Source: Planctomycetales bacterium (GTDB taxonomy: Bacteria; 4484-113). From it: a DNA stretch of 64,000 nt. The stretch spans positions 101,428 through 165,427 of the forward strand of contig JBBIRS010000001.1 in assembly GCA_037441675.1 (NCBI GenBank). Reading direction: 5' to 3'. Below the pieces are notes generated by a model. That model saw nothing but the letters and a program-made list of their open reading frames with translations, was not told the origin of the DNA and ran no database searches. Of this stretch, positions 3,653-49,576 are shown piece after piece. Position 1 is the first letter of the stretch. Each line of letters begins with the position of its first letter. The position numbers and the translations under genes were made by a program.

Positions 3653-4975
3653 ATGCGGACAGATAAAAAGAGACTTCTCCTGCCAATTCCCTCATTTTTG
3701 TTCTCCCTCTTATTTTTTGGACCTTTAACTTTTCTGCCCTTTACCTCAAATCCTTATCATCCGTTCATTTGTTCTGTCTCGCTTATCGTTCTCAGCTTAG
3801 GAGTAATAGACCTCCTTCTTGCACTGTTTGAAGAGGTGCCTTTAATAAGCAGGAAATTACCTCCCCTTTGGGTCGTAGGCGTTAAAGGGAACTACGAAGT
3901 TTTACTCTTTAATCCTCTCAGGCGTCCTCTCCTAATTGAGTTTGCTGAAGACACCCTAGATTACATGAAGAAGCTCTATAGTGTAGGAAGAATAAAACTG
4001 CAATCGCAAGCGGAAGTAACGATCTCCGTTAATTTCATAGCTTTCGCTAGAGGGAATCTAGGGCTCGGCTCGATCTATTTGAGATACCCTACAAGATTAA
4101 GTTTCTGGTATAAGAGCGTTAAACTTGAGAGTACCGATTCAATTAGGATATACCCCTATATTAGGGATTACATAGTGTTTGATCCTTTCCAGCATCGTCG
4201 TCGGCAATTTCAGATTGGGCAGAAGAAAGTGCTGATACAGGGGGAAGGAGCTGACTTTGACAGATTGAGGTTGTATCAACCGGGAGATGACTACAAAAAG
4301 ATTAACTGGAAGGCTACAGCAAGATTGTATCGTCCAGTGGTTTCAGTGTTCTCTGCTGAACAAAACAAGGAAATAATGGTTTTACTGGACCGAGGCAGGC
4401 ATATGCACGCAGATATTAGCGGAAGGACTAGATTTGATAGATTTTTAGATGCCGTCGTTCAGCTTGCTTACGCTGTCCAAATTGAGAATGATAGGTTAGG
4501 CTTCCTTTTATTTGATGATGATGTCAGGAAGTTTTTCCCACCAAGGAAGAATCGAAATATCCTCTCCGAATTATACGACATTCAGCCAGTCCATATTGAG
4601 CCTGACTATATTAGAATGGTCAGGTTTTTGAACAAACACTTTAGGCGTAGGTCGCTCATCCTTCTTTTTACCGAAGTCGGAGATTCTCTGACTGGTGAAC
4701 GTCTTATTCTTGCGTTAACGGAGCTCGTAAAGTATGGGCAAGTTACTCTAATACTTCTTGATAATCCGAAAGTTCTAAAGCTTTCTTCTACCCCTCCAGT
4801 AGATGAGGCTTCATTTTACACTCATACCGCCGCCCTCTCCAACCTAAAGAGTAAAAGGTTGCTCTGTGAACGTATTAGAAGAATGGGAGTGGACGTTGTA
4901 AGGGCATATTCAGAGACCCTAAACCTTGAACTTGTGAATAAATACCTTGGATACAAAATTGCAAGATATGGTTAG
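3653..4975 (+). CDS. DUF58 family membrane protein (MoxR-associated vWA-like); an orphan copy
   Basis: N-terminal TM helices; DUF58 core LRLYQPGDDYKKINWKATARLYRPVVSVFSAEQNKEIMVLLD, similar to the second DUF58 at 39508. Confidence 0.7.
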   Translation: MRTDKKRLLLPIPSFLFSLLFFGPLTFLPFTSNPYHPFICSVSLIVLSLGVIDLLLALFEEVPLISRKLPPLWVVGVKGNYEVLLFNPLRRPLLIEFAEDTLDYMKKLYSVGRIKLQSQAEVTISVNFIAFARGNLGLGSIYLRYPTRLSFWYKSVKLESTDSIRIYPYIRDYIVFDPFQHRRRQFQIGQKKVLIQGEGADFDRLRLYQPGDDYKKINWKATARLYRPVVSVFSAEQNKEIMVLLDRGRHMHADISGRTRFDRFLDAVVQLAYAVQIENDRLGFLLFDDDVRKFFPPRKNRNILSELYDIQPVHIEPDYIRMVRFLNKHFRRRSLILLFTEVGDSLTGERLILALTELVKYGQVTLILLDNPKVLKLSSTPPVDEASFYTHTAALSNLKSKRLLCERIRRMGVDVVRAYSETLNLELVNKYLGYKIARYG

Positions 4976-5272: not shown

Positions 5273-5302
5273 TTGACTCAAGTTTCAAAATTGAAGGATA
5301 AT
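5273..5302 (+). promoter_or_regulatory. candidate sigma70 promoter upstream of the PLD-like lipoprotein gene
   Basis: TTGACT, an 18-nt spacer, then GATAAT, about 40 nt upstream of the ATG at 5344; it lies in a 368-bp AT-rich intergenic region. Confidence 0.3.
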
Positions 5303-5343: not shown

Positions 5344-7110
5344 ATGACGTTCATGAGAAAACTAGTCTTACTGATAGGGGGAGTTTTTTTTGTCTTTGTG
5401 TTGGCTAGTTGTGGAGGAGGCGATTCCACGACCACTACGCCCAGCGACGGTCAAGAGCCTGGCTCTAATCCACACCCTTGGGGTATTTACTCCGGGGTTT
5501 CGGTTGACTTTGTTGACCGTACATTCAGAGTTAGCGGTGGAGGGACAGATGATCCAAAGGACACTGATCCCATCTTTCTACATCTAGCCTCCGCCACACA
5601 AAGTTTAGACATAGCAGTTCCCAAAATTGATAGACAAGAGGTCGTAGATGTTATTTTAAGCACTGCCGATAGGGTTCACGTACGAGTGTTAACCGAGAAA
5701 GCTTTTGCAGAGGATCCGCATTATCGTCCCTACCTGGAGCAACTCAGGTTACATCCTAACATTGAGGTTCGCACAGACCAGGATGGTGAGCCGAGGATAA
5801 TGCACGCTAGGTTTCTAATAATTGATGGGGCTAGGGTAGTTACCGGTAGTTACAATTGGAGCGAGGAGGCTAGCGAGAGGACTATCGGTGATTTACTGGT
5901 AATTAACGATTCAAGAATTGCATCAACATTTACAAACCAATTTAACCAGATGTTTGTAGAAGGCAAGTTTGGCACCGCGAAGCGCGATGCAACCCCGCAT
6001 AGCTTTCCAGTATTCGGTAATTTAGGAGTGATTGACGTTTACTTTGGTCCAACTAACAAGTTTGATCAAATCCTTCAAGGCGAAATAGAGCAATCAAGAC
6101 ATGTCGCTAGTGTGGTTGAGCAGTTCTCTAACTTTGGTTTTGCCAACTTTCTGGTTCAGTGGCTAGGCGGAACAATTGGGCTTGGAGACCCCTCCACAAG
6201 GTCAATGGTGCTCATTATTGATGATATTGGCCAGTATGGTGATACAGATGAAAATCTCGTTTACGAATCGCTTTTAGGATTATTATCTGAAAGTGAAGAT
6301 GTTGGAAGTGGAGGAATCCCGGCTACTTTAACCATTAATTCTGCCCCAGATTTAAATTGGGCGAGCATAGGAGTTCATACAAGTGAAAAATTATTATTTG
6401 CAGACCATGCGTTTGGAACCGGAATCCCAGCAGTAGTAGTAAGTACTGCGAACTGGACTGAACAAGGCTTCTCTCTCAATGACGAGGTAATGGTCATTCT
6501 AAGGGGGTCTATTCTCGCGACAAAGTACCATTTTATCACGACATTTCAAGTTCCCCACTTTGGGAGGGACTTTATTACAAATGACGTCAGAGAGATAGAA
6601 CAACTAAGCTTGATGTATCCATTCGTGACGAATGGGACCGATACAATGGTGCCCCGTGATCCCGCTCTTAGCGATATTTCTACTGGAGTAATTCACGGAA
6701 CAGTTGATAACTTCCGTCGTGAGTATTCTTATCAAGATAGCGATGGTAATATGATTACCCAGCTTCTAGATATAATGTGGGAAATTGAAGGCGAATATTA
6801 CTTTGGCGGTCCTATTAATGGATACATAAATCCCACATTTGACGAAAACGAAGCTACCAATCCTGGGAAAAACTATGTGCTGGTAATTCCTGCAGGCAAA
6901 ATGACGGTTAGGGCGGTCGTTGTAGACGCCGATGGTAATGCCATTGAGGGTTTTGTGCCTAATGAAAAGATTGTAGAGGTAAGTCCAGGTGGAGTCGTCA
7001 ATGTGAAATTTAGTATTACCGCACCGACGATAACTCCGGGCACTGGAGGCACAACCGGCGGTGGCCCCGGAGGCGGTGGCGGTGGTGGGGGCGGTGGAGG
7101 GCTATCTTAG
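5344..7110 (+). CDS. lipoprotein with a tandem phospholipase-D-like (HKD) fold whose motifs are degenerate; C-terminal poly-Gly tail
   Basis: Signal peptide plus lipobox LASC; first motif HARFLIIDGARVVTGSYNWS fits HxRx4Dx6GSxN with K replaced by R; second motif HAFGTGIP...STANW has lost both K and D; ends GTGGTTGGGPGGGGGGGGGGGLS. Confidence 0.6.
   Translation: MTFMRKLVLLIGGVFFVFVLASCGGGDSTTTTPSDGQEPGSNPHPWGIYSGVSVDFVDRTFRVSGGGTDDPKDTDPIFLHLASATQSLDIAVPKIDRQEVVDVILSTADRVHVRVLTEKAFAEDPHYRPYLEQLRLHPNIEVRTDQDGEPRIMHARFLIIDGARVVTGSYNWSEEASERTIGDLLVINDSRIASTFTNQFNQMFVEGKFGTAKRDATPHSFPVFGNLGVIDVYFGPTNKFDQILQGEIEQSRHVASVVEQFSNFGFANFLVQWLGGTIGLGDPSTRSMVLIIDDIGQYGDTDENLVYESLLGLLSESEDVGSGGIPATLTINSAPDLNWASIGVHTSEKLLFADHAFGTGIPAVVVSTANWTEQGFSLNDEVMVILRGSILATKYHFITTFQVPHFGRDFITNDVREIEQLSLMYPFVTNGTDTMVPRDPALSDISTGVIHGTVDNFRREYSYQDSDGNMITQLLDIMWEIEGEYYFGGPINGYINPTFDENEATNPGKNYVLVIPAGKMTVRAVVVDADGNAIEGFVPNEKIVEVSPGGVVNVKFSITAPTITPGTGGTTGGGPGGGGGGGGGGGLS
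7057..7101 (+). repeat. GGN codon microsatellite encoding a C-terminal poly-Gly tract (11 consecutive Gly codons)
   Basis: ggc ggt ggc ccc gga ggc ggt ggc ggt ggt ggg ggc ggt gga ggg, read directly from the sequence. Confidence 0.8.
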
Positions 7111-7180
7111 CTTTCCTTCCGCAAATACTTTTGTATGCTCTTTAGTTTGCTTGCAATTTAGGTGATAATTGGGAGCAATT

Positions 7181-9151
7181 ATGAGTGAGAAACTGAAATT
7201 AATTAGAATTACGCTGGCTCTTTTTCTTGCGATTTTCTTGATTGTAAGCTGTGGAGGAGGTGACGGGGATCAGCGGCAAAATGGCTTTGGTCCTCCACCC
7301 CCTGGTGGTCTAGAAGGTGGTGATTCCGAGGAAGAAACCCCATTTACTCTTGGTAATTTCACGCTTCCAGGAGGCACTCCTTTTGGGGATATTCGTGGAA
7401 TTGCTGCAAGTTCTCGGTACGTTTATGTTGCTGAAACAAATGCGATACATGCCTTTGATCTGCTCGGTAATTACGTTAACACTGCCTCAGCAGCTAACAT
7501 TACTGGTATGGTAGTGATTCCACCAGATCCGAAGCCCCAGGATGGCGATACTACCCATTATCCCTATCCAGAGTTTCCCGTTATCGTTTACGAACCTACC
7601 GAGAATAGTTTCATTTCTATTTTTGCTCCCAACTTGGACGACTTAGTCACTGTGGAGCATCAAGATTATCCAGACCTGGTTAAGCGGATTGATTTACCGT
7701 TTATAGAAGATTACGTTAGATACAGAGTTCAGCCTACTAGCCCTGTACCGGATCCACCCGATCCTTGCCCCCTCCTAATTGTTCGAACCTACGATGTTGA
7801 TATAACTAGGGAAGGAACTATTGTAGTACTTACCGATACCGACCTCCCCTGCACAACTCCTTTCCCCGATTTCCCAATGACAATGTACTTTTTTGATCCC
7901 CATGAGGGTTATCTAATTTCTCCGCGGCGAACTGGAACAGTAGGGGTTCCAGATGAGAACGGAAACCCTCAACCGGTTCAAGCTCCTTTCCGTTTTGCTG
8001 GAACTTTTGGAGACCAAACCGGAAGCCTCGGACAGCTTGCTATAGCTAACAAATATCCTCCTAATAGAACAGATAGTCAGACACTATATCTAGGTGGCGA
8101 TGTTAGAGCCATTCCAGATATTCGTTTAATGCTTGGCATCTCGGAGTGGAATATTGAAGTTGATTTTGTAGGTGTCAATTTTCTCCAAGTAGATACAACT
8201 TTTCCGCCCTATATTTATGAAATTGGTGGAATTGTTAACAATCGTTACGGGTATAACCGTGTAATTGGGCTTCCGGGCGGTTCACTACCTGGGAGTTTTG
8301 CTCTAACCCCACCGATCGGCCCAGGTGGTGACTTGGAAGACCCAGATTTAACAGCGGGTGGTCCATCCGGAATGGCAATTAATCCCAGGACCGACGACTT
8401 ATATGTTTGTGATCCGGGCAATAGAAGGGTTCAGGTTTTTGATAAAAACTTAAATTTTGTTCGCCAGATTGGTGATGGAATAAGGGGCACTTCAGGAAAT
8501 CATCTCGTTGCTCCTAGCGAAGTGCATATTACCCTGGATGGCAAAATTTTTATTGGAGATACACTTGGGGATGGAAGCGGAATTGGTTGGCTAAGGATAT
8601 TTGGTGAAACCGCTCCGCCCGAGTTTGGTTCCGTAGGTGGAACTGTTATGAACCCCACGACGGTTCCTCCTTCTCCTATAGTTGAAGCAACTGTTACCAT
8701 CCTTAACGCCAACGGCGTGGTTGCCATTCAAAACACTAACGTAAATGGTGAATATCGTTTTGACAATCTCCCGCTTGGAACATACTTCCTAACCGCGGAT
8801 AAGTTCGGTTATAGTACAGATTCAACCTCAGTTGATCTCGTTGCAGACCAGCACGTAATTGTCAACTTTAACTTATACCCAGGTGTTCCTCCCACGCTTG
8901 GTTTCTACGTTGGTGCTGTTTATGATGAAGTGACAAATCAGGCTATCGCTGGTGTAAGGGTTAGGATAATTGGTACTTCCATTCAGACTTATACAGACGG
9001 ATCTGGAACATTCTTCATTTCCGACTTACCTGCAGGTGATTACCAGGTAGAGTTTACCCATGAGGATTACATCACGAAGACCCTTGACTTGCACATAACC
9101 GCTGGTCAAACCACGAGGCACGATGCGGTTAAATTGATACCTCTGCCATAA
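7181..9151 (+). CDS. lipoprotein with NHL repeats and two carboxypeptidase-regulatory-like beta-sandwich domains; the likely start is the ATG at 7181 with RBS GGGAG
   Basis: Lipobox IVSC plus a Gly/Pro-rich linker; NHL-like YVCDPGNRRVQVFDKNLNFVRQIG; CarbopepD_reg-like segments GEYRFDNLPLGTYFLTADKFGY and SGTFFISDLPAGDYQVEFTHEDY. Confidence 0.6.
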   Translation: MSEKLKLIRITLALFLAIFLIVSCGGGDGDQRQNGFGPPPPGGLEGGDSEEETPFTLGNFTLPGGTPFGDIRGIAASSRYVYVAETNAIHAFDLLGNYVNTASAANITGMVVIPPDPKPQDGDTTHYPYPEFPVIVYEPTENSFISIFAPNLDDLVTVEHQDYPDLVKRIDLPFIEDYVRYRVQPTSPVPDPPDPCPLLIVRTYDVDITREGTIVVLTDTDLPCTTPFPDFPMTMYFFDPHEGYLISPRRTGTVGVPDENGNPQPVQAPFRFAGTFGDQTGSLGQLAIANKYPPNRTDSQTLYLGGDVRAIPDIRLMLGISEWNIEVDFVGVNFLQVDTTFPPYIYEIGGIVNNRYGYNRVIGLPGGSLPGSFALTPPIGPGGDLEDPDLTAGGPSGMAINPRTDDLYVCDPGNRRVQVFDKNLNFVRQIGDGIRGTSGNHLVAPSEVHITLDGKIFIGDTLGDGSGIGWLRIFGETAPPEFGSVGGTVMNPTTVPPSPIVEATVTILNANGVVAIQNTNVNGEYRFDNLPLGTYFLTADKFGYSTDSTSVDLVADQHVIVNFNLYPGVPPTLGFYVGAVYDEVTNQAIAGVRVRIIGTSIQTYTDGSGTFFISDLPAGDYQVEFTHEDYITKTLDLHITAGQTTRHDAVKLIPLP

Positions 9152-9323: not shown

Positions 9324-10205
9324 ATGGATCTTTCAGTCATTATCCCCAACTATAACGGAGAGAAACTCCTAATACCATTGATAAGCCGACTTGAAGAGTT
9401 ACTCGCCAAATCAGGCTTAAACTACGAAATAATCCTTGCTGATGATTGTTCTAATGATGAAAGTGTTACTTTAGTAAAGAGTACTTTTCCGTGGGTGAGA
9501 GTTGAGGCTGGTGGGGAGAGGAAAGGTTTTGGAGGCAACTGCAACAGAGGCGCAAAAGCAAGTAATGGTAATTATCTTGCTTTTGTAAACACTGATATTG
9601 AATTTGAAGGGGATATCTTCAACCAACTTATAAAGTCTCTATCAGATTCAAGGGTATTTGCAGTGATGCCTCTGATATTTGCTGAAAGATTAGGACGCGT
9701 GGAAAATTACACGTTCCTTTGGAAGCATCGCGGACTTGTCTGGTTAAAGCCAAGGGGAGAAATTGAGCTAACATCTGCGGAAGAAGTTGCTAAGAAACTA
9801 GAGCCCAATCCGATTGGTGGTGTTCCACTCTGCGGTGCATTTTTTATCTGTAAAAAGGATATTTTCAACACCCTTGGTGGATTTGACGAAATTTTTTCTC
9901 CAGCTTATTGGGAAGATGTGGACTTAGGGTTCAGAGCGGAAGAACTTGGCTATGACATACTGCTTGTCCCAGGAGTAAAAGTTCTGCATAAGCACTCTAT
10001 AACTATAGATATATCTTTCGGGGGATCCCTAAAGAAAAGGCTTCTGCTCAGGAATCAGGCACTATTTATAAAGAAGCATCTTAATCGGCTAGCGCCAATT
10101 CCCAATTTCCGCATTTGGCTTTCTCTAAGGATTTTCCAGCGTCTCTTTCAAGGCTATCAAGAGCTTATCCCAATTTATCTCTCCATAATCCTTTCGAGGC
10201 AGTAG
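9324..10205 (+). CDS. family 2 glycosyltransferase
   Basis: N-terminal VIIPNYNGEKLL...DDCSNDES, with DxD-type GT-A motifs. Confidence 0.8.
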   Translation: MDLSVIIPNYNGEKLLIPLISRLEELLAKSGLNYEIILADDCSNDESVTLVKSTFPWVRVEAGGERKGFGGNCNRGAKASNGNYLAFVNTDIEFEGDIFNQLIKSLSDSRVFAVMPLIFAERLGRVENYTFLWKHRGLVWLKPRGEIELTSAEEVAKKLEPNPIGGVPLCGAFFICKKDIFNTLGGFDEIFSPAYWEDVDLGFRAEELGYDILLVPGVKVLHKHSITIDISFGGSLKKRLLLRNQALFIKKHLNRLAPIPNFRIWLSLRIFQRLFQGYQELIPIYLSIILSRQ

Positions 10206-16085: not shown

Positions 16086-17519
16086 CTAAATAGAGCTATG
16101 CCACCTCTTCTTGCGTAAAAGTTTAGAATAAACCGATATTATGAATTCTCTCTCCGTTCGGTTTAATTCTCCATTTTCCCTCAAGATTCTCTGAATCGCA
16201 ATAAACTCCTCATCGGACATTTCAATTTCATTTGTGAGATACGCCAAAAGGTTAAGCTGTTCATTATCTGTACGTGGGGATTTGCCCGATAATGCTGAAA
16301 GAGCGAATAAGAAAGCTCCTTCAAAATCATCAGTTTTATACATTTGGTTACCAAGGGCGATAATCCTTTCAGTCTCCGGTGGGAATTTATCTATGGGTAA
16401 GGATAATCTACGTCCAAGGGGAAAAACTCTCGGCAATAGTGCAACTAAAGCAATTAGGATCAGAATAGACAAGGCTCTTCCCCCTTTGGTTGATACCAGT
16501 AGGCTCGTGACGCTAACTGTTGGAAGGTAAAATCTTGCATTTTCGTGGAAAAAGTAAAGTGGCATCTCACCCCTAAGTTGGAGGAGGTTATTAGCAAATA
16601 CAACGTTATCCACAAGCCCAATTTCTTCATTGGTCAATATATCTGAGATAAACAGGATAGTTAACCTTGCGCTTTCAATAGACTTCGCACCAAGCAATGG
16701 AACAAGCGTTCCCTTTAGAATGTAAACTTCATCAAGGCTATCAAGTAAGTTTTGATAATATGTTGAGACATATTCCAATTCTTCAATGTTTCTCTTTATG
16801 TAAATGTGGGTAACTTCATTAAAGAGAGCCGAGGTCTTTGGTAAGAATATGTGCATTCCCCCCTTCTCATCTTTCTCCCACGCTACTTCGTAAATCTTAC
16901 TATGTATTTGTTCCTTTTGTCTTTGCTCTGCTCTCCGCTCCTCAATATTATGTAAATTTGTGCTTATTTTCACCTCTCTATCACTCTCTCTTGCTCCATG
17001 TTCATTTGATTTTAATTTCAGCATATTCTCTTTTGCTTCTACGTTCGGTATGCTTTCATTCTTAATCAACAAATTCTTATCATTCTTCTCACTTTTCGTC
17101 TCCACCTTAGACCTTTTAACTGATTGGGGTCCTGTTGAGGATATATCTACTGTTTCATTTGGTAATGGCATTAAGAGCAAAAAACTTGTCCCTTTCTCCA
17201 TTTGACTAGTAATACTCTGAAGATCATAGAAGGGGTAGGGGGCAAATAATTTATGAGACTGGTTTTTGGCACTACCCGTTAAGACAACGAATGCTCCGCG
17301 GGGAATAAGAACCAGTGGACGATTATGTATAACAGGTCTCATCTTTAGTCTTTTAGCTAACAGATATAGAGCGCGAATACCCTTAGCGCCGGTACTGTAT
17401 GCTGAGAGTGGTTCGCCATCCGCCTTATGAGGTTGTGCCTTTATTGAAAGGGAAAAAACTAGGCTCACTATTATCGCTGTAAGTAGCCATATACCAGTGC
17501 TTTGCGGTGCTGTTTTCAT
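16086..17519 (-). CDS. DUF4350-like membrane protein (MoxR/BatA-system accessory) with a Lys/Glu-rich low-complexity insert
   Basis: Signal/TM helix, then YSTGAKGIRALYLLAKRLKMRPV, typical of DUF4350; a second TM near the C-terminus; 2-nt gap to alr and 4-nt gap to the DUF4129 gene. Confidence 0.4.
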   Translation of the reverse strand: MKTAPQSTGIWLLTAIIVSLVFSLSIKAQPHKADGEPLSAYSTGAKGIRALYLLAKRLKMRPVIHNRPLVLIPRGAFVVLTGSAKNQSHKLFAPYPFYDLQSITSQMEKGTSFLLLMPLPNETVDISSTGPQSVKRSKVETKSEKNDKNLLIKNESIPNVEAKENMLKLKSNEHGARESDREVKISTNLHNIEERRAEQRQKEQIHSKIYEVAWEKDEKGGMHIFLPKTSALFNEVTHIYIKRNIEELEYVSTYYQNLLDSLDEVYILKGTLVPLLGAKSIESARLTILFISDILTNEEIGLVDNVVFANNLLQLRGEMPLYFFHENARFYLPTVSVTSLLVSTKGGRALSILILIALVALLPRVFPLGRRLSLPIDKFPPETERIIALGNQMYKTDDFEGAFLFALSALSGKSPRTDNEQLNLLAYLTNEIEMSDEEFIAIQRILRENGELNRTEREFIISVYSKLLRKKRWHSSI

Positions 17520-17523
17520 CTTC

Positions 17524-18288
17524 CTATTCGCGATTCCCCTCTTGGGATAAAAGTTGAAATGCCCTTTTGAATTCAGCGAATTTGTCTATACTTATGGAGC
17601 GTTCCCCATAAAAGGTTTCATTGAAAATCATAGTTAAATATCTAAAGGCGGTTGTTCTTTCTGGCTTTCTAAATTTGAAAGACTGGATTAAAAGGGAAGT
17701 GGGAAGCGTTTTGGCATAAGCTGGAAATAAGATATTTAAGCTTTCCTGATATAGACACCTAATCGCCTCAATTAAATTTCCCTGCATTTCAGCTTTTTCC
17801 GCCAATTCTAACCAACCATTTCCTGATTGTGACTTTGCAGGTGATCGTTTCTTTCTCCTGTGAATTTGAAAAACCTCCAGACAGCTTTTGACTACGAAGG
17901 CAAGTAACCCCAAGCCTAAGATTAGTGAAAATAGCCTAAAGATGGTGAATGCTGTGGGATTTTCACCTTCCGAACCTTGTGATAAGTTCTTTAACCATTC
18001 CACGATTGGTGTGAGTATTCCCCATTCATTATCGAGGGAACTTCTACCCTCTTGCCGAAAAGCCCTGCTTGAAAGAATGCTATTTATCATTGAGTGAAGC
18101 TCGTTAGCATCAACTCCTTCATTTTGTATCTTTCGAGAATTGTTTGCGTCGTGAGGGACATAACTAGTTTGCCCTGAAGAACTCTCCTGTATGTTAAAAA
18201 TGAAGGCGTAAGAACTTCTAGCAAGAATGAGTAAAAATACTAGCACTAGGATATATCTAAATTTCCAATTCTTAAGGTTGTATACCAT
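17524..18288 (-). CDS. DUF4129 domain membrane protein
   Basis: Two TM helices, then a C-terminal WLELAEKAEMQGNLIEAIRCLYQESL...AFRYLTMIFNETFYGERSIS resembling DUF4129; the same domain type sits at the C-terminus of TgpA at 40753. Confidence 0.45.
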   Translation of the reverse strand: MVYNLKNWKFRYILVLVFLLILARSSYAFIFNIQESSSGQTSYVPHDANNSRKIQNEGVDANELHSMINSILSSRAFRQEGRSSLDNEWGILTPIVEWLKNLSQGSEGENPTAFTIFRLFSLILGLGLLAFVVKSCLEVFQIHRRKKRSPAKSQSGNGWLELAEKAEMQGNLIEAIRCLYQESLNILFPAYAKTLPTSLLIQSFKFRKPERTTAFRYLTMIFNETFYGERSISIDKFAEFKRAFQLLSQEGNRE

Positions 18289-18302
18289 GACATCTAGTTC
18301 AG

Positions 18303-19976
18303 TTAGTAGTATCTAGGTGAGAAAACGATATCAACCTTCTTATTTTTTGCTGACGCCCTAAAGTCCAGCAAGTGGTTGTAATTAACATCGCTGGTAAGAA
18401 ATTTTCCGTGCGCTACCCATCTATTTGAATGACTTGAAAGCCGAACATCAGATACTTCATACATACTTGCACTCTGTATAAACTCAATTTCCCCTAAGAG
18501 TTTACCAACTTCCTTTTCGAGTTCTTTCTTTCCAGTGGAGTATGCTGAAAAATTAATAATAACCCCAAAAGGTGGAAGCTTAAAATCTTCCTTCAGTTTC
18601 TCTATGTCAGCAAGGGTTTTCTTCCTATCGGGCCCAATCCTAGCGAAAATTGCATCAGTAATTTGTTTTGGGCCTAGAAGTTGAATATTTACTGAATTTC
18701 TTCCGTAAAGAGAGTATAGACGATAGATTTGATCCTCTACGAATTCCTCAACAAAGGGAGCCTGCGAAACCGATATAAATTCCCTTAGGATGAAAACGAT
18801 TTTCTTCGGTTTATAGAAGCTTAAAGGTGAGAAAAGTGTGCTTGTCCCAATCAATACGTCCGTTCTACCCAGATTCGCTTCCCTAATTTCACCTCTACGT
18901 GCTTGGTATAATGCTCCTACACGTGGCGTATGTGGAAGATTTCGTTTCTTAAGCTCAGCTCTAACTAGTTTCGCCAAGCCTTCAACTCCAACAAGTTGAA
19001 TAGAAAGCTCTCTTCCTTGACATTCTTGACACGCAACATTTCTGCTTCTAAAGCCACAATTGGTGCAGGCGAAATGCTCCGTATCTGCACTGTAAAGAAG
19101 ATATCTTCCGCAATTGGGGCAGTACACCATACTATCACAACTTTCACATTTAATATGTTGCCCAATGCCCAAGGCATCGTTAAGGACCAGCATTTTCACG
19201 CCACTTCTTGCTTGCGAGGCAATTGTTCTTGAGAGTTTTATTATTCTCTCATTACTAGTGCCGGATACAGGTTTTGGAGTTGAATGCAATTCATCCGCGG
19301 AATAACACGGATAAGTGGAAGTTAGGGGGATTAACCTCAACACCATTGGTGTAACCATTGAGTAGAAGTATAAATTTAGTAGCGTGTTGTATCTTGGGTA
19401 ATCTTGAGATTGAAAATGTGGGTTAGTTGGGTCAAAGATAATTACCTCGTCAAAGAGAGAGTAAAGGCAAAGGAAATTGCTAGCCCTTTTTCCAACTATA
19501 ACAATGGACTGCGAGCTTTTGAGAGATTGCTCCAACTTAACAAGTTCGGAAGAAGGCATATCAGAAGAAAAGGTTAATACTCTATCCGCACCCCTTTTTG
19601 GAAGCGCATTTTTGAACGCTTCAACAAAGCTCTCTTCGGGCAAAAGCACGAGAATTTTACTTTTCTTATTCAAAAGAGTCCTGACAAATGATTTGCGAAA
19701 AAAGTCACGCCAATTCACATTTTCAACTCTTATGCAAGGGCTAGAGATGCATCCATCATTCAAAGAGAGTTCAGAAAAGAAACTACTAACTTGCCTGAAA
19801 AAGGAGTGTCCTTCGGGGAATTTGGCTTCTTCTCCTTTAAGTGGAATGGCGAGAACTTGCTGAATCGGTGTTTCAACCTCTTTCCATGTCTTATGAACGA
19901 CCGTTGACAAGGATAATGTTCCTACTACCCTTAACTGCCCACTCTCTAGTATGTCCCATAACTGACTAGGCTCCAT
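18303..19976 (-). CDS. priA: primosomal protein N' (PriA), C-terminal 557-aa portion; the helicase ATPase motifs are degenerate
   Basis: PriA-specific Cys-rich zinc region CESCDSMVYCPNCGRY...CTNCGF...CQEC; region KILVLLPEES...IVIVGKRASNF...LFDEVIIFDPTNPH aligns to PriA motifs I-II but lacks GxGKT and DEEH. Confidence 0.7.
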   Translation of the reverse strand: MEPSQLWDILESGQLRVVGTLSLSTVVHKTWKEVETPIQQVLAIPLKGEEAKFPEGHSFFRQVSSFFSELSLNDGCISSPCIRVENVNWRDFFRKSFVRTLLNKKSKILVLLPEESFVEAFKNALPKRGADRVLTFSSDMPSSELVKLEQSLKSSQSIVIVGKRASNFLCLYSLFDEVIIFDPTNPHFQSQDYPRYNTLLNLYFYSMVTPMVLRLIPLTSTYPCYSADELHSTPKPVSGTSNERIIKLSRTIASQARSGVKMLVLNDALGIGQHIKCESCDSMVYCPNCGRYLLYSADTEHFACTNCGFRSRNVACQECQGRELSIQLVGVEGLAKLVRAELKKRNLPHTPRVGALYQARRGEIREANLGRTDVLIGTSTLFSPLSFYKPKKIVFILREFISVSQAPFVEEFVEDQIYRLYSLYGRNSVNIQLLGPKQITDAIFARIGPDRKKTLADIEKLKEDFKLPPFGVIINFSAYSTGKKELEKEVGKLLGEIEFIQSASMYEVSDVRLSSHSNRWVAHGKFLTSDVNYNHLLDFRASAKNKKVDIVFSPRYY

Positions 19977-36086: not shown

Positions 36087-37763
36087 ATGCGCAGTTTAAT
36101 TTTCACTTTAGCGTTGGTTCTCTCCCTGGCTCTATCCACAGGAGCTTTTGCTCAGATGTTTAGGGATGTTCCACCGGATCACTGGGCATACGAAGCCATT
36201 GATTATCTCCAGCAAGAGGGCCTTGTAGAGGGTTACCCAGATGGTACCTTCCAGGGTCAGCGCTCCTTTACCCGTTACGAAATGGCTATGGTTGTCGCAC
36301 GTATCTACTCCAAGCTGGATGAGAAGCTTTCAGCTTTTGATCCTGCTAAGCTGGACGAGATTAACTCTCGCTTGGATCAGCTTGCCAATGAGTTCAAGGA
36401 CGAATTGGCAGAGTTGGGTGTCCGTTTGGACCAGCTTGAGAGCACAGTCTCTCAGCATGGTAAGGACATTGACCAGCTCAAAGCTCTTATCCGCGAGTCA
36501 AATTTAAGTGGCGTTTATCGTGTGCGAACCGGTGCGTACGTAGATACCGGAGTTGTTGATATGTCCAACGACTTCGGTCACGAGCAGTGGATTGAACTCC
36601 ACTATGGCTTCCAGCCAGAGGAGAACATTCGCTTTGATTTCAGCCTAACATCGGCTGAGGCTCAGGGTGCTGTAGGAACGGGCATCATTCCAGGTGCTGG
36701 AAACGAGACTGCCTTTACGACCATTGCCACTCCTCCCAACTTCTACTCTCAAGCAGCTTCCAGCTTCGTTCTTGACAAGGCAATGGCAACAATTGACCTG
36801 ACACCTTACACTGATGCATTTGGTGACACTCCCACGCTGACTGTTGGTCGTCAATACTTCAGTGAGGGCGAGTTTGGGCTAGCTGGCGATAACGGCTTCC
36901 GTTCCAACTTCGGTTACCGTTTTGACACAACGTGGGAGGATGGTGAATGGGCGTTCTATGTTGGTGCATACCGCGTGGAGTCCGCGCCAGCAACTTTCGC
37001 ACCATTCTTTAACCCCTTCACTAGAAGCTTCATGTCCAGTGCCATCAATGCTCCATTTGACAGTGATGATTACGTAAATCTCGGTTTCAAGTACAGAGGG
37101 CGCGAGGGCAAGTTCCCCGGACACGATTACGATCTCGCTATTAACATTGATGGTAGCCCCAATGGTTACGGTGCTGAGCAGTTTCTAAGCATTTCTGGAA
37201 ACGCGGAAATTCCGTGGTTTGATGACGAATGGCTTAACGGCATCCGTGCTGAGTGGGTTTGGGTACCAAACAACGTTAGCGACTTCGACGCGGAGGATAT
37301 CGGGCTTGAGGATATGAACACAATCGTTGGGCTTGACATCTACAACGATGGCAGAACAAAGTTCACCCTCTACGGTGCAAGCATTGCCCAGCTCGAAGGT
37401 CTACCAGTTTTTGCCAACGTTGATAACGATCCCTTCAGCGAGTGGGACTACACTGTGAACGGTCCAGGTGATGCCTTTAACTTTAGCCGTGAGGGTAAGA
37501 ACTTCTTCCCGTCAGACTTTGAAGGTATTGGTGTTACCTTTGAACACACCTTCCCCAACGATCTTTACGGGAAACTCACGTGGTACACTGGAGAGCGTAT
37601 TAATGCGTTCTTTGATGCACGTCCTGACCTCCTGAAGTTCAATTTCCGTTACCCATTTGCTAAGAATGCTTCACTTGGGTTGGACGTGATTACTTCTGGT
37701 CAGAGCGATGGTCTTGAAGACGCTATTACTCTCGTTCGTGGTGAGTTCTTACTTCACTTCTAG
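36087..37763 (+). CDS. SLH-domain outer-membrane porin (OmpM/Slp-type): signal peptide, SLH domain, coiled coil and C-terminal beta-barrel ending in Phe
   Basis: Signal peptide ...GAFA; SLH motif FRDVPPDHWAYEAIDYLQQEGLVEGYPDGTFQGQRSFTRYEMAMVVARI; heptad-rich segment; beta-strand-rich, aromatic-rich C-terminal half ending ...FLLHF. Confidence 0.8.
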   Translation: MRSLIFTLALVLSLALSTGAFAQMFRDVPPDHWAYEAIDYLQQEGLVEGYPDGTFQGQRSFTRYEMAMVVARIYSKLDEKLSAFDPAKLDEINSRLDQLANEFKDELAELGVRLDQLESTVSQHGKDIDQLKALIRESNLSGVYRVRTGAYVDTGVVDMSNDFGHEQWIELHYGFQPEENIRFDFSLTSAEAQGAVGTGIIPGAGNETAFTTIATPPNFYSQAASSFVLDKAMATIDLTPYTDAFGDTPTLTVGRQYFSEGEFGLAGDNGFRSNFGYRFDTTWEDGEWAFYVGAYRVESAPATFAPFFNPFTRSFMSSAINAPFDSDDYVNLGFKYRGREGKFPGHDYDLAINIDGSPNGYGAEQFLSISGNAEIPWFDDEWLNGIRAEWVWVPNNVSDFDAEDIGLEDMNTIVGLDIYNDGRTKFTLYGASIAQLEGLPVFANVDNDPFSEWDYTVNGPGDAFNFSREGKNFFPSDFEGIGVTFEHTFPNDLYGKLTWYTGERINAFFDARPDLLKFNFRYPFAKNASLGLDVITSGQSDGLEDAITLVRGEFLLHF

Positions 37764-38485: not shown

Positions 38486-39484
38486 ATGTTAGAAAGGCTT
38501 GTAGAGCAAAAAGGCGCTGAATCGCCAGGCATCCCACAAGATGAACTTATGGTCGCAAACCAAGGGATTCAACGCATCATTGACAATGTTGAGAAGGTTA
38601 TATTTGGCAAATCAGAGGTAATCAGGAGAATTATAGGTGCAGTACTGGTAGATGGGCACGTTTTACTAGACGATGTGCCTGGCATTGGCAAGACTATGCT
38701 AGCTAAGGCTTTAGCAAAATCAATTTCCGCTGAATTCCGACGTATTCAATTCACACCTGATTTGTTACCATCGGACATTACTGGAAGCTATATTTTTAAC
38801 CAGAAAACCGGCGAGTTCACGTTTAGAGCCGGTCCTATTTTCGCAAATATTGTACTTGCAGATGAGATAAATCGCGCTTCACCGAGAACCCAGTCATCGC
38901 TCCTTGAAGCCATGGAGGAAAGACAGGTCACGGTTGATGGTGTCTCCCATGCTCTTCCTCAGCCATTTATTGTTATCGCAACTCAAAACCCGATTGAACA
39001 TGAAGGAACCTACGACCTACCGGAGGCTCAGCTGGATAGGTTCCTAATTCGGGTAAAAATAGGTTACCCTCCTTCTGATGAGGAGGCAGAAATACTAGAA
39101 GCGCAAAGAGAGGAGCATCCAATTCACTCGCTAAAGTCTGTGATTGACCTGCAAACCCTTGAAAAGTATAGAATTATGGCGAGAAAGGTATATGTCAAAC
39201 CAAGCATCAGGAGGTATATTGTAAGTATAAGTAACGAAACTCGTAGTCATCCGGATGTTCTGGTAGGAGCATCAATTCGCGGTAGTCTAGCCCTTATGCG
39301 TTCTGCTCAAGCAAAAGCTCTCATTGAGGGTAGAGATTACATTACGCCGGAAGACGTTAAGGAAATGGCGCCGTTAGTTTTGAGTCACAGGATAATTTTA
39401 CTTCCATCCGCATCGCTCTCTGGGCTTAAAAGTGAGACTACTATCCAAAATGTTCTAAAAAGAGTTCCAGTTCCTCTGCAATAA
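38486..39484 (+). CDS. MoxR-family AAA+ ATPase
   Basis: Walker A GIGKTMLAKALAKS, RIQFTPDLLPSDITG and Walker B LADEINRA. Confidence 0.9.
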   Translation: MLERLVEQKGAESPGIPQDELMVANQGIQRIIDNVEKVIFGKSEVIRRIIGAVLVDGHVLLDDVPGIGKTMLAKALAKSISAEFRRIQFTPDLLPSDITGSYIFNQKTGEFTFRAGPIFANIVLADEINRASPRTQSSLLEAMEERQVTVDGVSHALPQPFIVIATQNPIEHEGTYDLPEAQLDRFLIRVKIGYPPSDEEAEILEAQREEHPIHSLKSVIDLQTLEKYRIMARKVYVKPSIRRYIVSISNETRSHPDVLVGASIRGSLALMRSAQAKALIEGRDYITPEDVKEMAPLVLSHRIILLPSASLSGLKSETTIQNVLKRVPVPLQ

Positions 39485-39507
39485 GTTTATAGTAAGATTT
39501 ATTTGAG

Positions 39508-40749
39508 TTGAGCTTTCTTACCCCAAATTCTAAGGTTTTAATTGCTTTAACCGCATTCACAGGTGTCTTAGCACTCATATTTCAGGGGCACCTATTAGTC
39601 TACACCGGCATTTTGTTGTTGACCACATGTGTAACTCTCTTCATCTGGTCTTTCCAATGCACTAAGGGACTAACCATTGAGAGAGAACATACTCAAATAT
39701 GTATGAAGGGGCAGAACGTTTTAGTTACGTTAAAGCTCATAAACCGCAGCAAATATCCAAGATTTTTAGTCTTCGGATACGATTACTTTCCTGCCGAAAG
39801 AGCTGGAGACACTTATAAATCTGTTATCTTTCCATCGGTGGCAAAGCACTCTGAAGCCCTTTATAGATACCAAGCCTATGCAGCAAGACGAGGGGTTTAT
39901 AATGTGGGTCCATTTTATTTCTATTCAGGCGACCCACTCGGTTTCTTTCGCCATGTAAGAAAAGTTGATGTTTATACGAAGATTACGGTTGTTCCTGTTC
40001 CTCTGCCTACAAGGTTAAATTACCTACAGTCCCGTTCAAGGATCCAAAAGGACGAGTATTCAACCATTGCAGTTCCAGGTCAATCAACCGAATTTCTTGG
40101 AGTTAGGGAGTACCAGCATGGTGACCCACTTCGCAAGATTCATTGGATGTCCACTGCAAGGACAGGAGAGCTTATCACAAAGCAGTTTGAGAAAAACGTG
40201 GCTTCTTCGTTGTCCATACTGTTAATAAACTATCCAGAACTCTCAAATGGCAAATTTGAGGAGCATACACCCCTTGAATACTCCATAACCATAATCTCAA
40301 CTCTAGCCAACGAAGTCAGTCGTCGTAGAAGTTATGTTTCATTCAAAGAACTAAATGGGAACTCCCCTCGCTCTGCCTCGGGAATGGGTGAGAGCTTCTT
40401 TGAAACTCTCTCTTATACTTTAGCATCGGTCACAAAGGGGGAACCATTTGAGCTGAAAAGCTATTACGAAGAAATTATGCGTTCTTTACCTTCCAGCTCA
40501 GATTTAATAGTTATTATCCCAACGCTTTCCAGTATAGACGCTGAAATTCTCTCTCATTTGCGCCTGAATTTCAAAAGCTTATCAGTTCTTACCTTTGACT
40601 TAAATAGTTTTATCACTGCTGTTCCTAGAAGAGCAGAAAAAACCCGCTTTACCTTCGCAAGGAACTTTATGGCTTTTGAAATTGCATTTGGCGATGATTT
40701 GACTTCAAAGTTAGAACAATTTATTGGGAAAGCTGGTCTGATTAAATAG
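39508..40749 (+). CDS. DUF58 family protein (vWA-like), MoxR partner
   Basis: N-terminal TM helices; REYQHGDPLRKIHWMSTARTGELITKQFE core motif. Confidence 0.8.
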   Translation: MSFLTPNSKVLIALTAFTGVLALIFQGHLLVYTGILLLTTCVTLFIWSFQCTKGLTIEREHTQICMKGQNVLVTLKLINRSKYPRFLVFGYDYFPAERAGDTYKSVIFPSVAKHSEALYRYQAYAARRGVYNVGPFYFYSGDPLGFFRHVRKVDVYTKITVVPVPLPTRLNYLQSRSRIQKDEYSTIAVPGQSTEFLGVREYQHGDPLRKIHWMSTARTGELITKQFEKNVASSLSILLINYPELSNGKFEEHTPLEYSITIISTLANEVSRRRSYVSFKELNGNSPRSASGMGESFFETLSYTLASVTKGEPFELKSYYEEIMRSLPSSSDLIVIIPTLSSIDAEILSHLRLNFKSLSVLTFDLNSFITAVPRRAEKTRFTFARNFMAFEIAFGDDLTSKLEQFIGKAGLIK

Positions 40750-40752
40750 ATA

Positions 40753-43158
40753 ATGAGTACATCTCAGTTCACTGGCGTAATAGATAATAGGCGCAAAGGC
40801 GAAAGAATAGCGCTATTTCTAATAACCTGTCTGGCAAGCTTATTAGGCTTACATATCCTCGATCTTGGTCTTGACAACCTGCATTTCAAGTTAACGCTTG
40901 TGCCCATTCTAATAGCAGGTTTTGCCTTCAGTTACTCTCTTGACGAAAGGTACCATCGCGTCACCCGTGTAATCGTCAACATCCTTGCAGTCGTTTCAAC
41001 CTTCTATTTCTTTCGGCAGATAATTAACGACCCAACTTCCCTCGGTAACTGGTTGGGTATGCTACTTGGCGTCCTGATGGTTCTTCTCAGTTTTGTAGCG
41101 TTTGCACCGGTTACTCACAGGATGTTTGCAACCATTGGAATAGTCTTCACTCTATTTTCTGCAGCAGCTAGCTATGAGTTAAAGATTGTCATATTCTTTC
41201 CGATATTTATGGCATTAGCGGGGTGTCTTCTTTATTTTTCATATTCCTTGGAACTGGCTGAAAAGGCTCAGGGCTTTACCGTAAGTGAGGATAATCTCAA
41301 TGAGAAGGCATCTCTACGATGGTTCTCAGCTCTAAGAATTATCATTCAACTTGTGTTTGGTGTATTTATTCTGTCTATTATTGTTTACGTTATTGTTCCG
41401 CATTACACTGACGTTAACCGCCCAGCTTTTCTATTACCAAGAAGCGGAAGTCTTGGCGATACCTTTAATGCTCTTAACTTAGAAGACGGACTAGACGAAA
41501 CCGAAAGGACAGGTGAGGCATTGAATATCACTCGCTTTTCAGAGGAGTTTGATCTTTCCGGTTCTTCTTCAATCTTTGGTGATAGGCGATTGTTCGAGAG
41601 TGATGAGCCAGCCATTGCAATGCGTAGCTCACAAAATTCTTATCTCAGAGGAGTGGTGTTTGATCTTTACACCGGCAGGCGTTGGATGACTTCTACTGAT
41701 GCTGAAGCAGTTCGCATTAGACCGATCGGTGGTAGAAAATTTTATCTTCTCACAAACGTGTTCGGCTTCCCACTTTTGGATTTTCCCTCGCGTACACTAG
41801 AGAAAAATTACCTCTCTAGGATTAACGTCAGTGTAGTTGAAGGAAATCAATATTCATCAACTCAGAATATAGAACTAAATTATGACCTGCACACACAAGA
41901 AATTGAGTTTCTAAAGGATCATCCGCCAGTGATTTTCACTGCCTATCAACCAATTAGGATTGAAAACCTTAGCGCCGTTAGAAGGGCAAACGAACTGGCA
42001 GAAAGCCCCGTTCCCTTTATGGATGCTTTCTCTATCGTAAGAACTAGGCTTTCCAGACATCCCGCAGGATTTAGATACAATGCAACGGTCTTAAGCCCAA
42101 GGTATACTCGGTCAGCTTTAGTGCTAGCGGGTGATGGAGTTCCAGAAGGGATACGTAAGCTATACCTCCAGTTGCCGACCGAAGAGAATCTAAAAGCACT
42201 CAAAGAGATTTATGGTGATGATGTCGCGCCAGTATCCGAGAGAGTTCGTCGGCTAGCGAGAACGATAGTTTCCGAAAGCCAAAATGTTTACGAAAAGGTT
42301 CAAAAGATTTACGATTATCTAATGAGCGAGCTAACTTACACGCTGGACTTTCCTCCACTTCCAGCTGGAGCAGAAGCAACAGAGTACTTTCTTTTTAAGA
42401 CGCAGAATGGTTTCTGTATGCAGTTTGCTTCTGCAATGGCGGTTCTTTTAAGGCTCAATGACATACCCGCACGAGTGGTTGCCGGCTATGCTCCAGGACA
42501 ATATTCAATAATTCAGAACAAATATATATTCAAAGATAAAAATGCTCATGCGTGGGTGGAGGTATACTTTGATGGCATTGGCTGGGTGCCCTTTGACCCC
42601 TCACCAACCTCCTCGGATATCTTCACTCTTTCCGGTGTCAAGGCTATTGGTTCCACACTCCTTAATTTCCTTGAAAACCTCTTCGTAATTGACCCCCAAG
42701 GTGCTAGGCTTACCCTTTTGAAATTTCTTAAGGGCGTTTACACCATAATAGCGCCAATTGCGCTGAAGTTCTGGTATATTCCAGTGGTATTGGTTGGCTT
42801 CCTGCTCTTTTTAGTTATCGCTTTACATTTTCATAAAAGGATAAAAAGATTCAAACAGTTTTACGCCGAGAATGAAATAGTAGAATGCTTCAGAGAATTT
42901 CAAGAAACTCTTAGTAGATATGCAATGCCCCGTGAGGCTTATGAAACCGCTGGAGAATACTACGGAAGAATTTCTTATGTCTTTACTCCATTAAGGGACA
43001 GCTTAAAAGAATTTATTGACATCTACAGTCGAGCAGCATTCTCAGGAAGAATACCAACAGAACGGGATATCTCATTCGCTAGGGAATTCACTTCAAAGGC
43101 AAGGGAGTATATTGCCTCAGCTTCGGGGGACGAGATTAAAGATGCAAGTAGTATTTAA
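40753..43158 (+). CDS. membrane protein with a transglutaminase-like domain (TgpA-like) and a C-terminal DUF4129 domain
   Basis: Several N-terminal TM helices; Cys-His-Asp core FCMQFASAMAVLLRLNDIPARVVAGY...AHAWVEVYFDGIGWVPFDP; C-terminal TM followed by a DUF4129-like segment. Confidence 0.85.
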   Translation: MSTSQFTGVIDNRRKGERIALFLITCLASLLGLHILDLGLDNLHFKLTLVPILIAGFAFSYSLDERYHRVTRVIVNILAVVSTFYFFRQIINDPTSLGNWLGMLLGVLMVLLSFVAFAPVTHRMFATIGIVFTLFSAAASYELKIVIFFPIFMALAGCLLYFSYSLELAEKAQGFTVSEDNLNEKASLRWFSALRIIIQLVFGVFILSIIVYVIVPHYTDVNRPAFLLPRSGSLGDTFNALNLEDGLDETERTGEALNITRFSEEFDLSGSSSIFGDRRLFESDEPAIAMRSSQNSYLRGVVFDLYTGRRWMTSTDAEAVRIRPIGGRKFYLLTNVFGFPLLDFPSRTLEKNYLSRINVSVVEGNQYSSTQNIELNYDLHTQEIEFLKDHPPVIFTAYQPIRIENLSAVRRANELAESPVPFMDAFSIVRTRLSRHPAGFRYNATVLSPRYTRSALVLAGDGVPEGIRKLYLQLPTEENLKALKEIYGDDVAPVSERVRRLARTIVSESQNVYEKVQKIYDYLMSELTYTLDFPPLPAGAEATEYFLFKTQNGFCMQFASAMAVLLRLNDIPARVVAGYAPGQYSIIQNKYIFKDKNAHAWVEVYFDGIGWVPFDPSPTSSDIFTLSGVKAIGSTLLNFLENLFVIDPQGARLTLLKFLKGVYTIIAPIALKFWYIPVVLVGFLLFLVIALHFHKRIKRFKQFYAENEIVECFREFQETLSRYAMPREAYETAGEYYGRISYVFTPLRDSLKEFIDIYSRAAFSGRIPTERDISFAREFTSKAREYIASASGDEIKDASSI

Positions 43159-43900
43159 CGCGGATGACTTTGGCTTACATCCCGTGATTTCAGAAGGGAT
43201 ATTGAGGGCGCTTGATGCTGGTATCGTTCGTTCTACCTCGGTTCTGGCTACAACGGTAAGCTTGGATGAGCTAAACTCCTTTGAGAGGCTGAAAATAAGG
43301 GGAGGTTCTCTAGGCATCCATCTTTCCCTTACGCAGGGGAAACCCCTCACGGATTTTCCAGATGAATTTCTGAACGAAGACAAGAAATTCAAGAAAGAAA
43401 TTATGTTTTCTCCGATGGGTATTCCCCGTTTAGCCGAGGATATTCTTGAAAAAGAAATTCAAGCCCAGGTTGAAGCAATTATGCCATACGGTCCAACTCA
43501 CATTGATTCTCATCATCACATTCATTCGTTCCACTCAGTCCTTCAGATTGTTGCGAGATTCGCGCAAAAGTATGGCTTAGCGGTCAGAGCTCTTTCTGAA
43601 AGTATGCGCGGTTATCTTATCTCACAAGGGGTTCGATGCTGTGATGTTTTTATAGATGGCTTTTTTGGGAAAAATAACTTGACCGAGATGAAGTTACTAG
43701 CCTTGATAGAGGATGTATTACTTAAAGGCGCAAAAAAGGTAGAAGTTATGTGTCATCCTGGTTTCTCTAACAATCTCCCAAGGGGATTGACCTCATATGC
43801 AGATGAGAGAGAAATAGAACTCGGCATTCTAACCTCATCAGAACTTGCCAGCGAACTGAAACGAAGAGGGATTGAAATTATTAGCTATGACGCGGTTTAG
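43142..43900 (+). CDS. YdjC/ChbG-family carbohydrate deacetylase; its start overlaps the TgpA stop by 17 nt
   Basis: MQVVFNADDFGLHPVISEGILRALDAGIVRSTSVLATT, plus downstream His-rich metal-binding segments. Confidence 0.7.
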   Translation: MQVVFNADDFGLHPVISEGILRALDAGIVRSTSVLATTVSLDELNSFERLKIRGGSLGIHLSLTQGKPLTDFPDEFLNEDKKFKKEIMFSPMGIPRLAEDILEKEIQAQVEAIMPYGPTHIDSHHHIHSFHSVLQIVARFAQKYGLAVRALSESMRGYLISQGVRCCDVFIDGFFGKNNLTEMKLLALIEDVLLKGAKKVEVMCHPGFSNNLPRGLTSYADEREIELGILTSSELASELKRRGIEIISYDAV

Positions 43901-47426: not shown

Positions 47427-47427
47427 G

Positions 47428-48210: not shown

Positions 48211-48229
48211 TTAATACTAGGAGTGGAAT

Positions 48230-49573: not shown

Positions 49574-49576
49574 GTC

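Follow-up and report, generated by a model that had tools for sequence, protein, structure and literature searches.

Introduction

The defining features of the phospholipase D (PLD) superfamily are an HKD motif that occurs twice and a mechanism that uses two histidines. The nucleophile of two-lobed PLD enzymes is the N-terminal histidine, which forms a phospho-histidine (H116 in SpPLD, PMC8004604; H263 in TDP1, PMC5349943), and the C-terminal histidine is the general acid/base that activates water (H311 in SpPLD, PMC8004604; H493 in TDP1, PMC5349943). Replacement of the acid/base histidine of TDP1 with arginine or asparagine lowers the activity and stabilises the covalent intermediate (PMC5349943), and human PLD1-K898R, in which the lysine of an HKD motif is changed to arginine, is catalytically inactive and is the standard dead allele (PMC2172799). 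In the FAM83 proteins pseudo-PLD domains serve as binding modules (PMC6008594). The present paper describes a PLD-like lipoprotein in which both HKD motifs are altered. It is encoded at positions 5344-7110 of a 64,000-nucleotide stretch of DNA from a Planctomycetales bacterium (GTDB lineage Bacteria; 4484-113; GenBank assembly GCA_037441675.1, contig JBBIRS010000001.1, positions 101,428 to 165,427 of the forward strand), which is called the window in the following and to which coordinates refer unless another locus is named.

The protein is best described as a lineage-restricted variant that combines a two-lobed PLD core with HxR and NxK motifs, an unclassified beta-sandwich, a Gly-rich tail and an NHL-propeller lipoprotein as its partner. 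Canonical two-histidine ping-pong hydrolysis has very probably been lost from the family, because the acid/base histidine is missing family-wide, the Lys to Arg change is of an inactivating kind and the remaining histidine is dispensable in several lineages. Based on comparison of the sequences, we consider it about an even chance (probability roughly 0.5) that the product is an envelope protein which binds phosphate esters, with no catalysis or very slow catalysis, and which would cooperate with its NHL-propeller partner.

A PLD fold with two altered motifs

The gene, the two PLD lobes and the two motifs are located as follows.

5344..7110, + strand: coding sequence of the PLD-fold lipoprotein, 588 amino acids (aa) plus stop, from the list of open reading frames (ORFs), with an ATG start
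5476..5988, + strand: PLD lobe 1, aa 45-215, highly conserved, with 21 invariant positions
5989..6528, + strand: PLD lobe 2, aa 216-395, relaxed, with 4 invariant positions, from hhalign against canonical two-HKD proteins
5803..5856, + strand: motif 1, H154-A-R156-FLII-D161-GARVVT-G168-S169-Y-N171, with HxR instead of HxK, from the alignment with canonical relatives
6382..6453, + strand: motif 2, S347-E-K349-LLFA-D354-(12 residues)-S367-T-A-N370-W, from three alignments

The PLDc_2 profile (PF13091), a search proposed in the initial annotation of the locus, matched aa 80-203 with E = 3e-25 and 89 bits against a cut-off of 27. With lobe 2 alone the score was 21.8 bits, which is under the same cut-off, and the match begins at K349. 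The family profile aligned with 72 canonical two-HKD proteins over 334 columns, with an hhalign probability of 100% and E = 1e-46. An AlphaFold2 model built from a 39-sequence alignment reached a predicted local distance difference test (pLDDT) score of 85.6 and a predicted template modelling (pTM) score of 0.83 and was disordered only at aa 18-40 and 567-588; in Foldseek the top ranks for this model were PLD3, PLD4, SpPLD and F13. These results confirm a two-lobed (pseudo-dimeric) alpha/beta PLD fold, as the initial annotation, made from the sequence alone, had recognised. By sequence its closest kin are PLDs of the nuclease type (Zucchini/MitoPLD, Nuc and NucT), and the best structural match is to the PLD3/PLD4 exonucleases. 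The required pair of intact HxK(x)4D(x)6G(G/S)xN motifs is not present in the product, and no other HKD gene, of canonical type, turned up when the window was scanned.

For motif 1 the earlier description was exact: His, Asp and GSxN are kept, with Arg in place of Lys. Motif 2 had been called fully degenerate, with Lys, Asp and Gly lost. Here only the loss of the glycine of GSxN, replaced by Ser, is borne out, whereas Lys, Asp and also Asn are kept, and it is the histidine that is lost (Ser in the window protein, Asn in the family). The register proposed at that time, HAFGTGIP, starts at H355, the residue after the aspartate of the motif, and has to be abandoned: MAFFT, hhalign and PLDc_2 on lobe 2 all put the motif eight residues upstream. 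In the MAFFT alignment of 47 core and 6 remote family members and 17 canonical relatives, 'M-N-H-K-L-L-F-A-D' of the family pairs with 'M-H-H-K-V-I-I-I-D', and the profile-profile alignment with hhalign gives the same register ('mNHKllfaD' to 'mHHKviIID'). The 12 residues between D354 and S367 include a family-specific insertion of about 6. Residues at the motif positions were counted in the same three sets, with the canonical relatives as outgroup.

Position 154 (motif 1 His): core H41, N3, Q2, G1; remote H6; outgroup H17
Position 156 (motif 1 Lys/Arg): core R47; remote R4, A1, N1; outgroup K17
Position 347 (motif 2 His): core N45, S1 (the window protein), T1; remote N6; outgroup H17
Position 349 (motif 2 Lys): core K46, R1; remote K6; outgroup K17
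Position 354 (motif 2 Asp): core D42, N4, P1; remote D6; outgroup D17
Position 370 (motif 2 Asn): core N45, S2; remote N6; outgroup N17

The second histidine is missing in 53/53 family members (N51, S1, T1). The C-terminal motif of the poxvirus protein F13 has the same change of His to Asn, N312-x-K314 (PMC12751290). The question whether HxR is routine among homologues, raised together with the original description, could be answered affirmatively from the core members, all of which have Arg at position 156. Every HKD-type motif found in a scan of the 135 best non-family representatives has Lys, not Arg, at this place. The altered motifs, HxR and a motif 2 lacking its histidine, are in these alignments a family-wide trait and not the oddity of a single protein.

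Conservation around the motifs is uneven between the lobes (21 invariant positions in lobe 1 and 4 in lobe 2). None of R156, D161, G168 and D380 varies in the core, and 43/47 core members have S169. Four charged residues, D58, R62, R151 and K213, are invariant in 53/53 family members and not in the outgroup; Arg151, found throughout the family, is rare in canonical relatives. At position 348, which is the 'x' of NxK, 39/47 core members have His and the window protein has Glu. The first histidine is missing from six of the 47 core members, with three types of replacement (N, Q and G), and in these proteins motif 2 is eroded further: the Q-type variants have D354N and two of the N-type have N370S. 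The Q-type genes are intact and have retained the partner gene in two different metagenome-assembled genomes (MAGs; loci L014 and L015).

The family is small. Scanned exhaustively with HMMER, 1.84 billion cluster representatives yielded just 12 at E < 1e-30, and past those 12 the matches were ordinary double-PLDc_2 proteins (3,151 matches at E <= 1e-3). The MAGs in which the named family loci lie are all labelled Planctomycetales, UBP7 or 'bacterium'; the complete UBP7_A genome CP060262 is among them. A literature search on bacterial PLD pseudoenzymes returned no papers, and the papers on UBP7 do not mention these proteins.

Export signal and layout of the protein

Outside the PLD lobes the gene has the following features.

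5273..5302, + strand: promoter-like site TTGACT-18-GATAAT, about 40 nt 5' of the start codon, with 10/12 matches in a consensus scan
5344..5412, + strand: lipoprotein signal peptide, aa 1-23, with lipobox L20-A-S-C23, from reading of the sequence and a lipobox scan
5413..5475, + strand: Gly/Thr/Pro-rich tether, disordered, aa 24-44, poorly conserved, with pLDDT < 50 for aa 18-40
6529..7041, + strand: C-terminal region, aa 396-566, in which a short helical linker precedes a beta-sandwich (aa 447-553) of about 8 strands
7042..7107, + strand: Gly-rich disordered C-terminal tail TPGTGGTTGGGPGGGGGGGGGGGLS, with pLDDT < 50 for aa 567-588

The ORF is backed as a real gene by 39 full-length homologues obtained in a word-indexed search, and GGAG is found 9 nt before its ATG, within an intergenic region of 368 bp. 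Promoter-like sites around the gene are no commoner than in shuffled sequence and are weak evidence. The N-terminus, MTFMRKLVLLIGGVFFVFVLAS-C23-GGG, has a charged n-region (R5/K6), a hydrophobic core and then the lipobox L-A-S-C, which is the pattern of lipoproteins processed by signal peptidase II (lipobox [LVI][ASTVI][GAS]C). Cys23, which would be the acylated residue, is unchanged in 39/39 full-length homologues, and G24-26 are nearly invariant, so that the lipoprotein assignment made initially stands. The product is predicted to be extracytoplasmic and lipid-anchored. Because the window encodes Mla and TamB-like proteins, the host would have an outer membrane, and the lipoprotein, first suggested to be a surface protein, could therefore equally face the periplasm as the cell surface. 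The mature protein is strongly acidic, with an isoelectric point (pI) of 4.5 (family median 4.3).

The approximately 170 aa after the PLD lobes had been noted as unassigned sequence and remain so, with no Pfam match even at E <= 10. CarboxypepD_reg/transthyretin-like domains (PF13620 / PF13715) were considered for the C-terminal beta-sandwich and rejected, as membership of these sequence families fails. No sequence homology was detected between the beta-sandwich and the CarboxypepD_reg domains of the partner (hhalign probability 0.3%). The Gly-rich tail, with up to about 14 consecutive Gly, is found in most core members and in 6/6 remote-clade proteins, at about 25% identity. It occurs in the window only in the product of 5344-7110 and resembles no C-terminal sorting signal that we could name.

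The NHL-propeller partner gene

Next after the PLD-like gene, on the same strand, comes a second lipoprotein gene.

7181..9151, + strand: partner lipoprotein (lipobox V-S-C), with a six-bladed NHL beta-propeller and two CarboxypepD_reg beta-sandwich domains

The fold matches of the partner are generic. With an alternative TTG start of the partner gene at 7169, the gap between the two genes is 58-70 bp, and it contains no terminator-like site; because of this short gap without such a site the two genes likely form an operon. A same-strand homologue of 7181-9151 lies directly after the PLD-like gene in 23/25 family loci. The two loci without a partner match are L018, where the contig ends inside the PLD gene, and L022. 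The two-gene cassette persists at loci L008-L016 and L019, where the other flanks differ completely, and it is present in five of the six remote-clade loci (L020, L021 and L023-L025), at about 25% identity. Over 23 loci the identities of the PLD-like and partner proteins to the window copies run parallel (r = 0.98), and the partner family, with about 40 full-length members, is about the same size as the PLD-like family.

In the UBP7_A genome (L009, CP060262) the flanks of the cassette are genes for GAPDH and a sugar reductase, unlike those in the window, and the pair therefore moves or persists as a unit. An ORF of 406 aa at 13741-14961 of L009, transposase-like by eye, abuts the cassette. At L023 an extra protein of 155 aa (9438-9905 of that locus) with a lipoprotein-like signal, CarboxypepD_reg-like by eye, is encoded directly 5' of the PLD-like gene and may be a third component of the cassette at that locus.

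Proposed function and alternatives

The motif residues of the two lobes would lie in one pocket. This composite pocket at the lobe interface has, as far as can be judged from the sequences, turned asymmetric: lobe 1 would contribute His154, Arg156 (for Lys), Ser169 and Asn171 together with the invariant Arg151, and lobe 2 would contribute Ser347 (Asn in the family, His in canonical enzymes), Lys349 and Asn370. In the reading that we favour, the retained cationic pocket (R151, R156, K349, S169, N171 and N370) would bind a phosphate mono- or diester and turn it over very slowly or not at all. Candidate ligands are envelope or extracellular phosphate esters, such as a phospholipid head group, a nucleic-acid phosphate or a phosphorylated glycan. 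The PLD-like protein would act jointly with the NHL-propeller lipoprotein of the same probable operon, and the beta-sandwich and the Gly-rich tail may be spacer or interaction elements. The fold, the states of the motifs, the pattern of conservation and the pairing of the genes are established by the analysis; we infer the loss of turnover, the ligand binding, the nature of the ligand and the physical cooperation with the partner, the last of these from the gene linkage. The continued conservation of the remaining pocket residues fits a maintained binding site. The initial annotation had suggested a single-site or non-catalytic variant, and in broad terms this agrees with the absence of the second histidine in all 53 family members, with Arg156 in all 47 core members, with the replacement of His154 in six of these and with the inactivation of PLD1 by a Lys to Arg change (PMC2172799).

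Several points weigh against a binding protein with no or very slow turnover. The first histidine is still present in 47/53 members, which weakens this reading. The C-terminal motif of F13 is needed for the function of that protein. That F13 shares the C-terminal His to Asn change (PMC12751290) likewise weakens it. The pocket is conserved beyond what a pure scaffold would seem to need, as would equally suit an enzyme that works by an altered mechanism, and H348 (39/47 core members) could be a substitute acid/base, although the window protein has Glu at this position. The acidity of the protein (pI 4.5) speaks against its binding DNA or other polyanions non-specifically.

The main alternative, possible but less probable than the binding reading, is that the protein is an active single-histidine envelope enzyme of the PLD type, i.e. 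a phosphodiesterase, nuclease, phospholipase or head-group transferase. His154 would then form the phospho-histidine, Arg156, Lys349 and Arg151 would hold the phosphate, and the lost acid/base histidine would be replaced by His348 in most members, by Glu348 here or by the acceptor alcohol. The presence of His154 in 41/47 core and 6/6 remote members, together with the high conservation of R156, D161, G168, S169, K349, N370 and D380, is in line with activity, and the family-wide invariant charged residues D58, R62, R151 and K213 could rebuild a catalytic centre. An NxK motif moreover occurs in a functional PLD-family protein, F13 (PMC12751290), and the closest relatives are of the nuclease type, by sequence Zucchini/MitoPLD, Nuc and NucT and by structure PLD3/PLD4. 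The candidate substitute H348 is however not conserved in the window protein itself, and His154 has been replaced in three ways (N, Q and G), with the Q-type genes of L014 and L015 intact and accompanied by the partner gene. We know of no characterised PLD-superfamily enzyme that turns over with one histidine. TDP1 loses activity and traps its covalent intermediate when the acid/base histidine is replaced (PMC5349943), and PLD1 is inactivated by the Lys to Arg change (PMC2172799).

The behaviour of TDP1 suggests a further alternative, a ping-pong reaction stalled at the covalent stage. His154 would attack a phosphodiester, and with the acid/base histidine no longer there to activate water, the resulting long-lived phospho-histidine bond to an envelope polymer, lipid or nucleic acid would serve for self-anchoring or trapping; in a variant of the same idea the phosphoryl group would go to no acceptor other than a specific one that the NHL-propeller partner presents. 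A retained nucleophile together with an acid/base His to Asn change is the pattern that stabilises the enzyme-DNA intermediate in TDP1 H493R/N (PMC5349943), and in the family the acid/base replacement is fixed in 53/53 members. Formation of the intermediate would, however, also require protonation of the leaving group by the missing histidine, the Lys to Arg change in motif 1 and the six His-less members among the 47 argue against essential histidine chemistry, and covalent capture has no known precedent as a natural function. Taken jointly, we regard covalent capture and its acceptor-specific variant as improbable. Least probable of all is that the gene belongs to a known intracellular PLD-type system, such as the DISARM nuclease DrmC, a NucT/Nuc nuclease or a cardiolipin/phosphatidylserine synthase. 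Weak matches to DrmC (25.6 bits with NCBIfam; E = 8e-9 with PADLOC), NucT (32.6 bits) and cardiolipin synthase (11.3 bits) do exist, and some homologues carry the automatic JGI names 'cardiolipin hydrolase' or 'cardiolipin synthase-like', but these scores are far under the curated cut-offs of 133, 297 and 787, respectively. The protein has a lipoprotein export signal and its HKD motifs are not intact; the two flanking genes gave no defence-system match, the context is one of housekeeping genes and the conserved neighbour is the NHL lipoprotein. By the scores and the export signal a known system is effectively refuted.

Genomic context

Other genes of the window code for HisRS, Ffh, alanine racemase, Dfp, DnaE, GyrA, a SurA-like peptidyl-prolyl isomerase (PPIase), MlaEFD and a TamB-like giant protein, and judged by this gene content the context is chromosomal and housekeeping, in a diderm organism. 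The region 46680-54223 contains genes for MlaE, a MlaF-like ABC ATPase and an MlaD-domain protein, followed by one for a 1548-aa protein with a TamB C-terminal domain; it is this phospholipid-transport gene set which points to an outer membrane. Two DUF58/VWA genes are present. One of them (3653-4975) lies directly 5' of the PLD-like gene, with synteny only in close relatives, and the other lies within a cluster at 38486-46556 that encodes a MoxR AAA+ ATPase, DUF58, a TgpA-like transglutaminase and a BamB/PQQ-like propeller. On the - strand at 16086-19976, between the genes for alanine racemase and the SurA-like PPIase, three consecutive ORFs of 477, 254 and 557 aa had no Pfam match at E <= 1e-5. 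The 558-aa protein encoded at 36087-37763 has an N-terminal S-layer homology (SLH) domain and no further Pfam match. A tRNA-His (GTG) gene at 359-434 is found immediately 5' of the histidyl-tRNA synthetase gene (507-1910), on the same strand.

Comparison with known systems

The family can be seen as a natural experiment carried out over a whole lineage: one histidine is gone, the lysine of the other motif is now arginine and the remaining histidine is optional, and nonetheless the pocket residues and a dedicated partner gene have been conserved. Should the PLD-like lipoprotein be a binding protein, bacteria would have in it an envelope equivalent of the eukaryotic pseudo-PLDs (FAM83), and it would point to an uncharacterised complex of two lipoproteins in UBP7, a candidate lineage about which little is known. 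Should it be active, PLD chemistry would run on a different set of residues, with a bearing on the long debate over whether poxvirus F13 is active. For the present the practical impact is limited, as the organisms are uncultured.

The nearest sequence neighbours of the family are canonical bacterial two-HKD PLDc_2 proteins of about 350-450 aa, of which Serratia plymuthica SpPLD (PDB 7e0m) is a solved example. These proteins have HxK in both motifs (17/17 aligned) and have neither the C-terminal beta-sandwich nor the poly-Gly tail; they also lack the roughly 6 residues inserted in motif 2 of the family and its invariant D58, R62, R151 and K213. Human and mouse PLD3 and PLD4, which are lysosomal 5'-3' exonucleases, share 14-17% identity with the window protein and are active, with complete HKD motifs. 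The poxvirus F13 / p37 envelope protein (PDB 9fhk; 10-12% identity) is a palmitoylated viral protein that faces the cytoplasm; it differs in the N-terminal motif and lacks HxR, a beta-sandwich and an NHL partner.

Assignment to individual known families was rejected in each case considered. For DISARM DrmC the PADLOC matches were, besides being weak, only partial, and the export signal does not agree with it. The best of the NucT models was that cited above, and Nuc and NucT are homodimers of a single-lobe HKD protein, whereas the protein studied here is of the two-lobed monomer type with an altered motif. Cardiolipin synthase and phosphatidylserine synthase were dismissed on the score of the cardiolipin synthase model and the incomplete HKD pair. 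FAM83 / SACK1 (PF07894, DUF1669) gave 17.4 bits against a cut-off of 21.4; these proteins are single-lobe, vertebrate, cytoplasmic and CK1-binding. The TDP1 mutants H493R (SCAN1) and H493N share the pattern of the family, with the histidine of the nucleophile motif present and that of the C-terminal motif replaced, and such acid/base mutants show slow turnover and a trapped intermediate (PMC5349943). Pseudo-PLDs as such have precedents, and the family is a clean natural case of an asymmetric, probably disabled PLD site together with a conserved partner.

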